Shown piece by piece: positions 30,430 through 46,392 of a stretch of DNA of 64,000 bases. A model generated the notes under the pieces. It saw only the letters and a program-made list of their open reading frames with translations. It did not search any database and was not told the DNA's origin. The DNA comes from Candidatus Aegiribacteria sp. (lineage in GTDB: Bacteria > Fermentibacterota > Fermentibacteria > Fermentibacterales > JCC-6): the NCBI GenBank assembly GCA_023138735.1, contig JAGLOY010000013.1:14139-78138 (forward strand), in the 5' to 3' direction. The translations under genes and the position numbers were made by a program. Each line of letters opens with the position of its first letter. The stretch's first letter is position 1.

Positions 30430-30500
30430 AAAGAGCAAAAACCCCCTTGAAGGGGGCATTCACGATTTGGCTGGATGCTTGTCTGAGAGATGGAACACTT
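30430..30500. repeat. Outermost att-like junction (hairpin + core + P-arm)
   Basis: CCCCCTTGAAGGGGGCATTCAC...TGGCTGG..GTCTGAGAGATGGAACACTT; the left flank matches the sequence next to the tRNA (about 46250-46318). Confidence 0.75.
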
Positions 30501-30816
30501 CCAGCACCTGATTAGATAATACGGTGCTAAAAAGTAGTGACAGGTCAATCCGTACCTGCCCCGCCACCGGCCGCGAGCACAACATCATAGGTGCTCTGAT
30601 ACACGCCTGAATTACTGTTGACCCGTCGAAACAGGCGGAGTATGATGTAAATGATTGCTGACAATGAGGATTTGGGTCACATAATAGTTTTCAATGAGGT
30701 TCCAGGCGATGATGTGTATTCCAGTATCCCATAGCCAGATCTGTGAATCTGTAAGCAGGAAGAGAATCATACTGGGTTACAGATCATCCGAACACAAACC
30801 GGGAGGGATTGAACAG

Positions 30817-31284
30817 ATGAGGAAGTCTACTTTAGTATTCGTGGCAGCCTTCGTACTTGCGATCGCCTGTGGTGGTGCTTCCACTCCTGACACCGTAGTG
30901 AGACAAGCAATAGACGCCGTGGTGAGCGGTGATGGAGAAGCGCTTGTCGGCTACCTTTCCTCTGATGGCATTGAGGCTCTCAATGGTCAGGTCGAAGAAT
31001 TGAAAGCCAATCCGGAGGAAAGTGCCTCTTTCCTGGCAATGATGGGCATCGATGTCACTGCCGAAGAGGTCGAGAATATGGATGCCGGTGACATGATCAC
31101 ATGGATGCTCCAGAGTGAACTCATGCAGGCTGAATTGCCTGACTTCAGCACCATCGAGATCGGAGAGCCTGTAATCGAGGGCGAAGATGCCCTTGTTCCC
31201 ATTGTTCTTGAAGGGGAAAGCGAAGAGGTCGAACTCGTTCTTGAGGACGGAGAATGGAAACTCAGCGAAATGATGGGAATGTAG
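30817..31284 (+). CDS. Lipoprotein, NTF2/DUF4878-like
   Basis: IAC lipobox; TPDTVV...; ends LVLEDGEWKL. Confidence 0.75.
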   Translation: MRKSTLVFVAAFVLAIACGGASTPDTVVRQAIDAVVSGDGEALVGYLSSDGIEALNGQVEELKANPEESASFLAMMGIDVTAEEVENMDAGDMITWMLQSELMQAELPDFSTIEIGEPVIEGEDALVPIVLEGESEEVELVLEDGEWKLSEMMGM

Positions 31285-31295
31285 GAATTGTCATA

Positions 31296-31375
31296 AAGGG
31301 CGCCTAATAAGCGCCCTTCTTTATATCCATGGCTGGCCATCTGTATGAGAGTTGGAACACTTTTGCTATTTGGTT
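31296..31375. repeat. att-like junction with terminator-like hairpin
   Basis: AAGGGCGC-N7-GCGCCCTT, then TGGCTGGCCATCTGTATGAGAGTTGGAACACTTT. Confidence 0.75.
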
Positions 31376-31800
31376 ACAGGGAATGGCTCAATAAAAGACC
31401 GTAGAGAAAGGAATTGTATTCCGAGCACTGCGCCATTGCCACTAATCCTGATTACGCGAGTCATGAACCTCAATGCGAATACCATAGATCTAGCGACGCT
31501 CCTTTGCATGCCTGTACGTATTTGGCAAAAAATAATCATATATATGAAATCGAACTCTTACAGAGGTGAAGGGACTGATCAAGACAGAGTCTTCGGGATT
31601 CTACTATGTGGGCTGATCACGCAAACCTGGGCAGAAATGCTTGGAATGTGATGGTTACATCTTTATCCTGGAGGGCAACTGGAGGGGTCTGAGTCATTGA
31701 CAAGAGTACTGCGCTACAGCACATTATGCTAGGTTGTGTTGTGGATAGACACCAACTATTCATTCACAGAAACAGTAACCGTTTATCGAAGGAGGGGAAG

Positions 31801-44390: not shown

Positions 44391-45995
44391 ATGAGACTCA
44401 TTAAGATAATTGCTTACTTGATTCCGATTGTACTCTTTGTAGGAGAAGCTTCATCTGATAATCCAGTGGAGGAATGGATTGTGTACTACTCTGGCTTAAT
44501 GGGTTTTAGTTGTGATGTTCCGATTTCTATCGCACTCGATAAGGATGGGAATATCTATATAGCCGGAAAAAGCAATCATGGCAGTAATCAAGATTTCACA
44601 ATCATAAAATACGACACAAGTGGAACAGAGGAGTGGGTTGCGATATACGACGGGTCGGGATTTGATTATCCGTATTCCACGATTCTGGATTCAGACGGAA
44701 ATGTTTCTATTACCGGAATGAGTGAAGGTAGCGATTCCGGATGGGATTACGCAACCGTCAAGTATAACAGCGAAGGTTTGGAACAGTGGGTTGCCCGTTA
44801 CCAGGGAGTGGATGATAACTGGGATATTTCAAACTCTATCACTTCAGATGAAAATGGAAACATTTACGTTACCGGAGAAAGTGATCGATATCCATACAGC
44901 GGCGGGGATACTGACTACGATTACTGTACCATTAAATACAACTCTAGTGGTGAAGAACAGTGGGTTCGACTCTATGATACTGGCCAGGAAACCGATGATC
45001 TAGGCAAATCCATTTTCGTGGGTGAAGATGGAAATGTGTATGTAACAGGCGGATCATATATAGATGCTGTTCATCATTTTAATTTCACTACGATCAAGTA
45101 TGACAGCACCGGATCTGTTCAGTGGACTGCGGATTACGACAGCAAGGGGAATGGGCTTGACATAGCTTACTCGATTATAGGGACTGCAGATGGGTACCTA
45201 TACGTGGGCGGAACCTGCTCCTTTAACGCAGGAGGAGATAAGGATTATGCTGTGGTTAAATATGATGATGATGGTAACGAGCAATGGGTGGCATACTGGA
45301 GCGCAAGTTATTCGAGTTTTAATTCAATGGTAGTGGACAACAGTGGGAACGTGTACGTAATATGTTCGACCACTGCCTATCTTGATATTCAGAAATACAG
45401 CTCTGAAGGAAATATAGAATGGGCCGCCGCTTTTGATGGACACCCTCTCGATATTTGTTGTGATGAAGCAGGTGATGTTTATGTAACCGGGTCCCGTTAT
45501 AATGGAGATAATTACGATATAGTCACCTCGAAATACTGCTCTAGTGATGGTATAGAACAATGGACGGTCTATTTCAATGGCCCAGACAATTTGGATGACA
45601 GAGGTTTTGCGCTTGCCTTGGATGATAGCGGGAATATCTTCGTTACTGGATCCAGCAGGAGTAATGCATCGTGGGATGATTTCGTCACAATCAAGTACTC
45701 GCAGACAACCGGTATAGAGGGAATTCAAGAGGATCTACAACCCAGCATTTATGTTTATCCAAGCCCAGCAAATACTTACGTTTCGATTGGCATCATAGCA
45801 CTTTCTGATTCGGAAGTTACACTCTCCATTTACGGACTGGATGGAAGACTGGTGGATACTATACTCGCAGGTCACCTGCAAGAGGGTGAGAATACCTTCA
45901 AATGGCAGACTTCCGGTATTCCGGAAGGAATCTATCTTCTTAGATTTCAAGCAGATTCATTCGAGAGTACTACCCGGGTTGTGGTGGTACACTGA
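44391..45995 (+). CDS. SBBP-repeat beta-propeller with T9SS-type CTD
   Basis: D..GNIYVTG...D..TIKY...G..QW repeats; VYPSPA...LDGRLV. Confidence 0.88.
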   Translation: MRLIKIIAYLIPIVLFVGEASSDNPVEEWIVYYSGLMGFSCDVPISIALDKDGNIYIAGKSNHGSNQDFTIIKYDTSGTEEWVAIYDGSGFDYPYSTILDSDGNVSITGMSEGSDSGWDYATVKYNSEGLEQWVARYQGVDDNWDISNSITSDENGNIYVTGESDRYPYSGGDTDYDYCTIKYNSSGEEQWVRLYDTGQETDDLGKSIFVGEDGNVYVTGGSYIDAVHHFNFTTIKYDSTGSVQWTADYDSKGNGLDIAYSIIGTADGYLYVGGTCSFNAGGDKDYAVVKYDDDGNEQWVAYWSASYSSFNSMVVDNSGNVYVICSTTAYLDIQKYSSEGNIEWAAAFDGHPLDICCDEAGDVYVTGSRYNGDNYDIVTSKYCSSDGIEQWTVYFNGPDNLDDRGFALALDDSGNIFVTGSSRSNASWDDFVTIKYSQTTGIEGIQEDLQPSIYVYPSPANTYVSIGIIALSDSEVTLSIYGLDGRLVDTILAGHLQEGENTFKWQTSGIPEGIYLLRFQADSFESTTRVVVVH

Positions 45996-46118
45996 TGCTG
46001 GAATACTTCCGGCTCTACAGAATTGTAACGACAGAGAAGATACTCTCGTAATTTTGTATTCTCAATATACATACATATTGTTTATTACTAGCAACAGGTT
46101 ACTGCGCTCAAAGCATTG

Positions 46119-46200
46119 AACCCCGGTATAGCGAAGGCCTTCAACATCATGGAGACGCTGAAGGCTGACTTATCAAAAGTGGCTGGCGGGCAGGGATTCA
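46119..46200 (+). pseudogene. Second recombinase C-terminal stump, joined to a tRNA-type arm
   Basis: NPGIAKAFNIMETLKADLSKVAGGQGF is homologous to 33284-33350 up to the core. Confidence 0.55.
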
Positions 46201-46280
46201 CTTCGACTCGTTCTACTCGCTCAGTGTAAACTCACCATTTTGATCTTCGATCAAAGGTCCGAATCGTGAACTTCAACTAC

Positions 46281-46318
46281 AAAAGTAAAAGCCCCCTTGA
46301 AGGGGGCATTCACTTTTT
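46281..46318 (-). terminator. Terminator-like hairpin after tRNA-Gln
   Basis: Minus strand GCCCCCT-TCA-AGGGGGC-TTTTACTTTT. Confidence 0.7.
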
Positions 46319-46392
46319 TGGCTGGCAGGCAGGGATTCGAACCCCGATTGGCGGATCCAGAGACCGCAGTCCTACCCTTGGACGACCCGCCA
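46319..46392 (-). tRNA. tRNA-Gln(CTG)
   Basis: TGGCGGG...GCGGT-CT-CTG-GA-TCCGC...GGTTCGAATCC..CCTGCCA-G-CCA; full cloverleaf. Confidence 0.95.

Follow-up and report, generated by a model that had tools for sequence, protein, structure and literature searches.

Probable accretion of small serine-recombinase-family units at the 3′ end of a tRNA-Gln(CTG) gene in Candidatus Aegiribacteria sp.

We analysed a stretch of 64,000 nt from Candidatus Aegiribacteria sp. (hereafter the window, on contig C35 of genome G000), which holds an array of seven small units running up to a tRNA-Gln(CTG) gene. The region 30340-46392 is probably an accretion island, in which small elements of a large serine recombinase (LSR) family were inserted successively at the 3′ end of this tRNA gene and then lost their recombinase genes. 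The initial annotation had already proposed that site-specific recombination, repeated at a single short core of the tRNA-Gln 3′ end, built the array, and this proposal is sustained by the LSR remnants, by the register of the attachment-site motifs, and by differences in whole units between species.

The tRNA-Gln(CTG) gene is the sole tRNA called by ARAGORN in the window. TGGCTGGC, the reverse complement of its final eight bases with CCA included, was matched exactly 12 times in the window, where 1.71 matches would be expected; none of 100 shuffles reached 12. Eleven of the matches are on the + strand (31330, 33344, 35997, 36134, 37171, 39469, 39607, 44002, 44126, 46180, and 46319), and the lone − strand match, at 59580, is unrelated to the array. 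With a degenerate copy at 30468 (TGGCTGGA) the array has the 12 cores first annotated, all in the same orientation. Read in antisense, the core TGGCTGG comprises CCA, the discriminator base, and the last bases of the acceptor stem, and direct repeats of this tRNA-Gln 3′ end delimit the units. On the right of the cores, the repeat finder and the junction printout gave seven copies of an arm that starts GCCAYCTGTCTGAGAGTTGGAACAC, here called the P-arm (30468, 31330, 33344, 36134, 37171, 39607, and 44126), four tRNA-like arms formed by RGGYAGGGATTC and then conserved non-tRNA sequence (35997, 39469, 44002, and 46180), and once the tRNA-Gln(CTG) itself, which is the fifth copy of RGGYAGGGATTC. On the left, a terminator-like hairpin B precedes 30468, 36134, 39469, and 46319, a hairpin H precedes 35997, 37171, and 39607, and an arm X precedes 33344 and 46180. 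The left arm types combine freely with the right arm types, B, H, and X each preceding differing junctions. The seven P-arms, the five copies of RGGYAGGGATTC, and this independence of the two sides had all been described correctly. The hairpin B before 46319, read on the − strand, has the form of a terminator of the tRNA.

Four P-arm copies share a long form (153 nt, 66-92% identity), and only the first ~50-65 nt are common to all. A P-arm 20-mer is exact in five of the seven window copies and has 1-2 mismatches in the other two. By an nhmmer profile, the 3.2-Mb assembly contains nine copies with E ≤6e-13, the next match having an E of 0.05; seven are in the window and two are beside a tRNA-Glu(CTC) gene on contig C124. 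Allowing up to 2 mismatches, the 20-mer occurs in 13 of 25 other species of the genus, in one of 11 genomes from other genera of the family, and in none of 24 genomes beyond the family; a reversed control pattern gave 0. Among ~35 distinct P-arm copies printed, most are preceded by a TGGCTG- or TGGCGC-type core or a one-base variant, and a few are degenerate. Viral contigs searched with a 17-nt P-arm word gave 0 matches. An Rfam search of 30000-47000 (E ≤1) returned the tRNA only, the P-arm matching no curated RNA family, and the idea of the P-arm as a tRNA-like 3′ minihelix was rejected since its reverse complement, read by eye, permits no T-stem.

The first signal of an LSR was a C-terminal stretch just to the left of core 33344 and at the equivalent sites in relatives; when the 11 recombinases of this genome were compared with the arrays by tblastn, only C-terminal fragments matched. 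A remnant search in 70 genomes of the order yielded an intact LSR in G014, of the same genus, as an open reading frame (ORF) of 513 amino acids (aa) at L108:1180-2721 with the domains Resolvase, Recombinase, and Zn_ribbon_recom. It ends inside tRNA-Gln(CTG) c[2690-2763], in antisense, and its terminal residues LAGGQGFEPR are encoded by core plus tRNA. The LSR is the last gene of this element, the sole intact one (contig C9), and its frame passes through attP; the contig ends 1.2 kb upstream of the LSR. Used as a tblastn query, the G014 enzyme matched the window at 33194-33289 (72% over 32 aa, one stop, with a frameshifted continuation to 33351) and at 46119-46199 (70% over 27 aa). Both remnants end at a core, and arm X is therefore the end of an LSR gene. 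A second LSR copy in G014 (C146; 91-93% identical) has a frame that crosses the core into a P-like arm with the tail QISGNWNPFIEWLQR, and the same crossing was seen in the metagenome loci L116, L118, L121, and L122. The P-arm also provides the stop codon of the LSR.

It was possible to arrange these genes as a series of decay, from 513 aa in G014 and 216 aa in G011 to open frames of 45-105 aa in G002, G004, G012, G013, G018, and G000; the last 25-50 LSR codons, which form the left half of attP, are retained in many species. Antisense reading into a tRNA is recurrent: G014 reads into tRNA-Gln, contig C14 of G000 and G018 into tRNA-Glu(TTC), and G025 into tRNA-Arg(TCT), while other LSR remnants in the family read into tRNA-Met and tRNA-Arg(CCG). 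Of the 14 metagenome loci examined, 10 show this arrangement, with the LSR or a stump of it adjoining or overlapping tRNA-Gln(CTG) or tRNA-Glu(TTC) in antisense; these relatives have 36-47% identity in the best segment. A scan of the genome contigs with the G014 LSR recovered only the two loci of G014 plus two distant LSRs. The absence of an intact integrase from the window, and a recombinase decayed or lost, had been anticipated; the domain search found no tyrosine or serine recombinase domain on C35 or C124, two C-terminal remnants are all that the window keeps, and the full-length enzyme was located in G014 and not in this assembly. Elsewhere in G000, C177:4779-6550 encodes an LSR of 591 aa, the last ~60 codons of which are antisense to a tRNA-like 3′ end (TGGTACCCCCAACGGGATTCGAAC) not called as a tRNA by ARAGORN.

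The spacing between core and arm motifs was counted from the T of TGG in the core. In four of four tRNAs, tRNA-Gln(CTG), tRNA-Glu(TTC), tRNA-Glu(CTC), and tRNA-Arg(TCT), the antisense of the T-loop begins after 17 nt, as does TTCGAAC past the tRNA core on the + strand of the window. In all nine P-arms, seven of the window and two of C124, a look-alike (TTGGAAC, TTCGAAC, TCCGAAC, or TTAGAAC) comes after 22 nt, and the same is true of five of seven unrelated element arms (C14, G025, L116, L150, and L163); of the remaining two, one has it at 21 beside a degenerate TGA and the other has ATCAAAC at 22, which the regular expression missed. The P-arm TTGGAAC is thus placed exactly 5 bp farther from the core than the TTCGAAC of the tRNA. 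For a Listeria integrase, the zinc-ribbon-domain motif was shown to be at 16-24 in the attP half-site and at 11-19 in the attB half-site (Rutherford et al. 2013, PMC3783163). Setting the centre between core positions 5 and 6, GATTCGAAC of the tRNA falls at 11-19 and AGTTGGAAC of the P-arm at 16-24. Because the 5-bp shift matches this published geometry, the P-arm reads as the P′ half-site, with the tRNA as the putative B′ half-site and X as the putative P half-site. The crossover dinucleotide would be at about core positions 5-6, a placement that fits the end of P-arm/tRNA identity after position 8 (Gln) or 6 (Glu-CTC). In the P-arm, GAGAGTTGGAACAC is invariant and would be a zinc-ribbon-domain binding motif that imitates the tRNA T-loop (GGGATTCGAACC). 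The invariance of codon third positions in CTGTCTGAGAGTTGGAAC favours a DNA site over a conserved peptide, although the arm also holds the LSR stop codon. The long P-arm extends ~100 nt beyond the LSR stop (33400-33496, 37230-37323, and 44185-44278). It may be a candidate outward promoter for the cargo, TATATTTG in it resembling what we take to be the −7 box of Bacteroidota-type promoters.

On contig C124 (5.5 kb), two P-arms accompany the tRNA-Glu(CTC) gene and are oriented to it as those of the window are to tRNA-Gln. They are joined to TGGCGC or TGGTGC, with which tRNA-Glu(CTC) ends, and not to TGGCTG. Since the core differs at this tRNA, GCCAY marks roughly where the P-arm proper begins, and what precedes it derives from the target tRNA. 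The sharing of one P-arm between tRNA-Gln and tRNA-Glu(CTC) with differing cores counts in favour of accretion by LSR-family elements. The C124 array (reverse complement, ~520-3870) has two P-arm units with ORF6N-domain and beta-propeller cargo, and a left arm of ~190 nt with three copies before each core.

Synteny of the genes that follow the tRNA on its right is kept in G002, G003, G011, G013, and G014, with 59-77% aa identity in the four of these genomes compared by tblastn (G002, G003, and G013 among them). In G003, a lipoprotein unit (89.2% over 779 nt) meets a unit with MazE and PIN genes (91.2% over 998 nt) in a shared stretch of 49 nt formed by the core and the start of the P-arm; in G000, an extra unit with a phosphatidylserine decarboxylase (PSD) gene is found between these two, exactly from core to core (2014 nt). 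The flanks of the two genomes are 79.9% identical over 5544 nt. The PSD unit of G011 adjoins the tRNA: a P-arm and the PSD gene are followed by the 216-aa LSR stump, by X, and by the core with tRNA-Gln. Its counterpart in G000 has 81.6% identity and is shorter by another 464 nt in the stump. The MazE-PIN unit of G020 stops at 34360, where hairpin B comes next, ahead of a core and a P-arm. Of the gain, loss, and reordering for which the initial annotation had suggested comparing relatives, whole units thus come or go at the core, but the shared units keep the same relative order between species. The differences in units are explained equally well by insertion or by loss through recombination between the direct repeats. 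The window gene 27261-28256, to the left of the array, has a homologue in G013 (71% aa identity) that is flanked by a P-arm and an X arm. It is possible that older units lost their boundaries and that the island formerly extended farther to the left.

The four tRNA-like arms belong to a second kind of unit, which we call the T-unit. In pooling all junctions the initial annotation was right for the P-arms, which are the arms of LSR-family elements, and not for these four copies, which form a separate small unit present beside many tRNAs. A T-unit (61-140 nt) combines the 3′ end of a tRNA, copied over 20 nt, with a conserved 36-nt arm (T-arm) and a covarying hairpin. Beyond this genome, the T-arm pattern (up to 3 mismatches) was recovered from 19 of the 25 other congeneric species and from three further genera of the family, the control giving 0. 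A genome has up to ten T-arms, each preceded by such a 20-nt copy. Where a next core was found, the real tRNA gene usually comes next, within 78-149 nt. The neighbouring tRNAs number at least 10 and include Gln(CTG), Glu(TTC), Arg(CCG), Arg(TCT), Ser(TGA), Ser(GCT), Leu(CAA), Ala(GGC), and Lys(TTT), and one T-unit is ~120 nt from a tmRNA gene. T-units down to 81 nt in length, T-units in tandem (L141), and T-units between two tRNA genes were also seen. At tRNA-Arg(TCT), the T-unit adjoins the tRNA in G013 and G020, and in G025 a 7.4-kb LSR element is located between the two; its LSR reads into the tRNA, and on the far side TGGTACCC is followed by a new arm. The same layout is found in G000 at tRNA-Glu(TTC), in a 29-kb element (C14:1-29400) that has two tandem LSRs (515 and 556 aa). 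The first LSR runs antisense into the tRNA, and the far end is marked by a T-unit bearing the Glu(TTC) 20-mer. Since T-units are present at these two LSR elements, they exist independently of the P-arm elements.

T-units carry TTCGAC after 22 nt, which is the attP register, and their 7-8-bp hairpin shows many compensated variants, with G.T pairs on the + strand. Tentatively, we regard them as minimal cargo-less relics of related elements. We also considered that the T-unit could be the tail of an LSR gene in its excised form: in the frame of three LSRs it offers nine codons with a conserved TAA, but the frame of a fourth LSR is a different one, and no intact LSR reading into a T-unit was found among the loci checked. 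The compensated hairpin led us to consider a small structured RNA as well; Rfam (46150-46330, E ≤10) gave only sub-threshold terminator-hairpin matches, and the T-unit corresponds to no curated family. A role of the 20-mer as a primer-binding-site-like or guide-like sequence was rejected, the 20-mer matching the adjacent tRNA in 10 of the 22 units with a next core found and the remaining ones being beside a P-arm or a slightly different tRNA; a match to the adjacent tRNA points to duplication on insertion. A transposon-end relic was considered too; the T-unit has no terminal inverted repeat, and its right end is not conserved. A 19-nt T-arm word had 0 matches in the viral contigs.

Taking these observations together, accretion would proceed as follows. 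The attP of an LSR element, formed by arm X, core, and P-arm, would recombine at the tRNA-Gln core, after which the LSR reads antisense into the tRNA. Each new arrival would push the older units away from the tRNA, and deletions would then trim the LSR genes to 0-50 codons, leaving cassette-like units of P-arm, cargo, and right-end arm that resemble CIMEs (cis-mobilizable elements). CIMEs have neither recombinase nor transfer genes and keep both att sites; all seven units here lack a recombinase and are bounded by core sites, and the array contains no autonomous element. Occupied and empty sites at tRNA-Arg(TCT) follow the same LSR logic. Considering that the assembly holds no cognate LSR, the units of this genome are most likely immobile; mobilisation in trans, as initially proposed, would be possible.

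Several points weigh against accretion from LSR elements. No LSR of the cognate subtype is present in the 91%-complete assembly, nor in the window, and the LSR link draws on remnants of 27-50 aa at two of the 12 junctions plus the relatives. Five units end in terminator-like hairpins and not in LSR remnants, and their descent from LSR elements is inferred. In the left half-sites the similarity is weak, a TTCAC displaced by 4 nt, and a division of the left arms into attB- and attP-type by this shift was too weak and was left unused. At tRNA-Glu(CTC), the palindromic GC at the presumed crossover would not fix the orientation. Cassette identity is above flank identity in one of three species pairs (in G003, not in G011 or G020), and simple accretion does not explain the origin, shortness, and regularity of the T-units. 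To our knowledge phage LSRs recombine only attP with attB, and an occupied tRNA would offer attR, so the entry of a second element is unexplained; the arrays of SCC (staphylococcal cassette chromosome) and of Dehalococcoides show that such entry happens. Finally, Logan contigs of the likely source run break in P-arms and T-units, leaving 36025-36181, 39497-39607, 44078-44175, and 46284-46728 unbridged; the order of units across the repeats is that of the assembly and is not confirmed by these contigs.

The strongest rival is a live cassette system, in which an LSR element of the population picks up and deposits non-autonomous units, in cis or in trans, among several core sites, the array being an open-ended platform and not a fossil. 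We hold it possible, with the balance of evidence tilting away from it. The P-arm 20-mer is conserved in the window and in the 13 species cited though the LSR genes are lost, and the left half of attP is kept in many species; the MazE-PIN and lipoprotein units are without an LSR in all three species holding them, with differing neighbours; and G014 has two copies of an intact LSR of the subtype. Contigs of run X3, from another study, moreover join 46177-39613, 46317-39607, and 35993-46319, all at cores. However, these joints have only 25-39 nt on the shorter side (31-39 nt in those that run backwards) and their partly diverged cores point to relatives, possibly other species, and we treat them as hints only. 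The collinearity of shared units is explained equally well by differential loss from a common array, no circular junction was found among the contigs, and this genome has no cognate LSR.

A related and bolder proposal, which we consider rather unlikely, is that of a serine-recombinase cassette platform, where entry through one core site and exit through another (X-core-T, hairpin-core-P, hairpin-core-tRNA) would deposit or collect recombinase-less units, with the T-unit as a portable cargo-less cassette restoring the landing site beside the tRNA after each event. If true, such an array could grow without limit, at a dozen tRNA genes per genome.

That the array is an artefact of an assembler chaining pieces through repeats of 50-150 nt, or of repeats spread by duplication or homologous exchange without a site-specific enzyme, we judge very unlikely. 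The four unbridged regions, where the source-run contigs stop, favour it. Against it, every unit is covered by the Logan contigs of that run without differences and at an even depth of 11.8-16, single contigs bridge junctions 31330, 37171, 35997, and 39469, independently assembled relatives show the same grammar at the same tRNA, and the breakpoints are at the core to the base, with a core that changes with the tRNA. Parts of the stretch are held, as contigs, by 17 runs labelled as cold seep or marine sediment metagenome.

The integron-like label of the initial annotation, by which a dedicated recombinase would act on a folded cassette-end site and the cassettes would share a promoter, fits the small units (0.9-4.4 kb, mostly of one gene) with a conserved site at each boundary, but we find it scarcely credible and have dropped it, since junction arm X is LSR coding sequence and the LSR 3′ end forms the left half of attP, the six PF00589 matches of the genome (tyrosine recombinases) are all outside C35 and C124, the cargo is on both strands and not co-oriented, and inverted repeats of at least 20 nt in 28000-49000 amount to one pair unrelated to the junctions, with no attC-type site seen and no dedicated attC model run.

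The units and their parts are collected in Table 1.

Table 1. Units of the array and the adjoining tRNA gene, in window coordinates.
Feature	Position	Strand	Basis
Degenerate T-unit and hairpin B, far left end of the array	30340-30467	+	Repeat and junction comparison
Unit 1: core TGGCTGGA, degenerate P-arm, lipoprotein gene (start ~30818, end 31284) with its terminator hairpin	30468-31329	+	
Unit 2: core, P-arm, phosphatidylserine decarboxylase gene 31726-33111, LSR C-terminal remnant 33194-33343 (one in-frame stop plus frameshift)	31330-33343	+	
Unit 3: core, long P-arm, MazE 33646-33918, PIN 33945-34313, FG-GAP/T9SS gene 34359-35795 (−), half T-unit 35920-35994, hairpin H	33344-35996	+	
T-unit: 20-nt tRNA-Gln 3′ end copy, conserved T-arm, hairpin, hairpin B	35997-36133	+	
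Unit 4: core, P-arm, 208-aa lipoprotein gene 36365-36991 (−), hairpin H	36134-37170	+	
Unit 5: core, long P-arm, FG-GAP/T9SS gene 37461-39332 (−), hairpin B	37171-39468	+	
T-unit with hairpin H at its end	39469-39606	+	
Unit 6: core, P-arm, nucleotidyltransferase fragment 39651-40043 (−), zinc-type alcohol dehydrogenase 40027-41091 (−), 401-aa lipoprotein 41115-42320 (−), outer-membrane protein (OMP) beta-barrel 42357-42926 (−), TetR 43141-43947 (+); LSR arm reduced to its last two codons before the next core	39607-44001	+	
T-unit of a second subtype (GGGTTCTCATCCC hairpin) with its own terminator hairpin	44002-44125	+	
Unit 7: core, long P-arm, SBBP/T9SS gene 44376-45995, LSR C-terminal remnant 46119-46179, reading on through the next core	44126-46179	+	
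T-unit adjoining the tRNA, hairpin B at its end	46180-46318	+	
tRNA-Gln(CTG)	46319-46392	−	ARAGORN; Rfam tRNA 50.4 bits

By Pfam and ORF inspection, the cargo of the seven cassettes is as initially listed and is mostly made of surface proteins. It is on the + strand in units 1, 2, and 7, on the − strand in units 4 and 5, and mixed in units 3 and 6. The lipoprotein of unit 1 has a lipobox, read from the sequence, and matched no family in a Pfam search. At the left end, 30396-30463, the right half of the leftmost T-unit, is 86% identical to the T-unit at 46180. The FG-GAP gene of unit 5 has six internal tandem repeats of 153 nt (38078-38996), and contigs of three runs jump 279, 414, or 649 nt in this interval, which suggests variants in the number of repeats. 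In unit 6, the ORF at 39651-40043 (−, 130 aa), immediately past a P-arm, is a truncated nucleotidyltransferase that matches positions 124-244 only of the 279-position Pfam model for streptomycin adenylyltransferase.

Among described systems the nearest are the ssrA islands of Dehalococcoides; SCC composites, tycheposons, and CIMEs are also comparable. As described by McMurdie et al. (2011, PMC3146451), the ssrA islands encode a serine recombinase of ~540 aa, DsiB, whose 3′ end always overlaps att and reads into the target or the next island, and they stand in tandem with direct repeats of the target 3′ end, some being without an integration module and proposed to be cis-mobilizable. These islands have a tmRNA target, a 20-bp repeat, and phage size, many with a six-gene integration module (PMC3146451), whereas here the target is a tRNA, the core has 6-8 nt, the units measure 0.9-4.4 kb, and all recombinase genes are lost. 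The use of the same P-arm at two tRNAs with different cores is a further difference.

In the accretion model of the Guedon group (PMC5704250), an element integrates, decays to an integrase-less element with att sites, and is joined by the next one beside it; that model concerns ICEs and IMEs (integrative and conjugative or mobilizable elements) of streptococci with tyrosine recombinases, and their cis-mobilisation was shown experimentally (PMC5704250). Here, in contrast, the recombinase is a serine one and cis-mobilisation is inferred. Tycheposons of Prochlorococcus, as described in the preprint by Hackl et al. (10.1101/2020.12.28.424599), stack cargo at tRNA genes with partial tRNA copies in between, fragmented integrases and extra partial tRNAs marking older events; 910 of 937 elements of this type have tyrosine recombinases, and many have replication genes. 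Neither of these two features is found in the present array.

SCC uses two serine recombinases, CcrA and CcrB, both of which are needed, and inserts at the 3′ end of rlmH (orfX); its composites are tandem, with some units lacking recombinase genes and with short direct repeats as bounds. As in SCC and pseudo-SCC, our units appear to be tandem serine-recombinase units at the 3′ end of one gene, unlike them at a tRNA, and we know of no T-loop mimicry in SCC. Integrons employ a tyrosine recombinase, IntI, a folded single-stranded attC, co-oriented cassettes, and a common promoter; the array is like them in its ordered, small, mostly single-gene units and conserved boundary site, and the integron hallmarks were not found here. 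The array belongs to a known kind, of which it is a compact and instructive case, and it is not an integron. What sets it apart is the small size of the units, the complete loss of recombinases, the short core, the P-arm of two tRNAs, the 5-bp register of the T-loop look-alike, and the T-units.

The array shows how, at a single tRNA gene, an uncultured lineage of cold seeps and marine sediments gathers small operons and a toxin-antitoxin pair along with surface proteins. Together with the relatives, it provides a natural series of LSR attachment sites in which one enzyme family was retargeted to several tRNAs, the T-loop-like motif being kept at a fixed 5-bp offset and only the inner bases being changed. 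T-units, beside many tRNA genes, fit no family found. The series bears on how serine integrases choose and change their targets, which is of practical interest for genome engineering.

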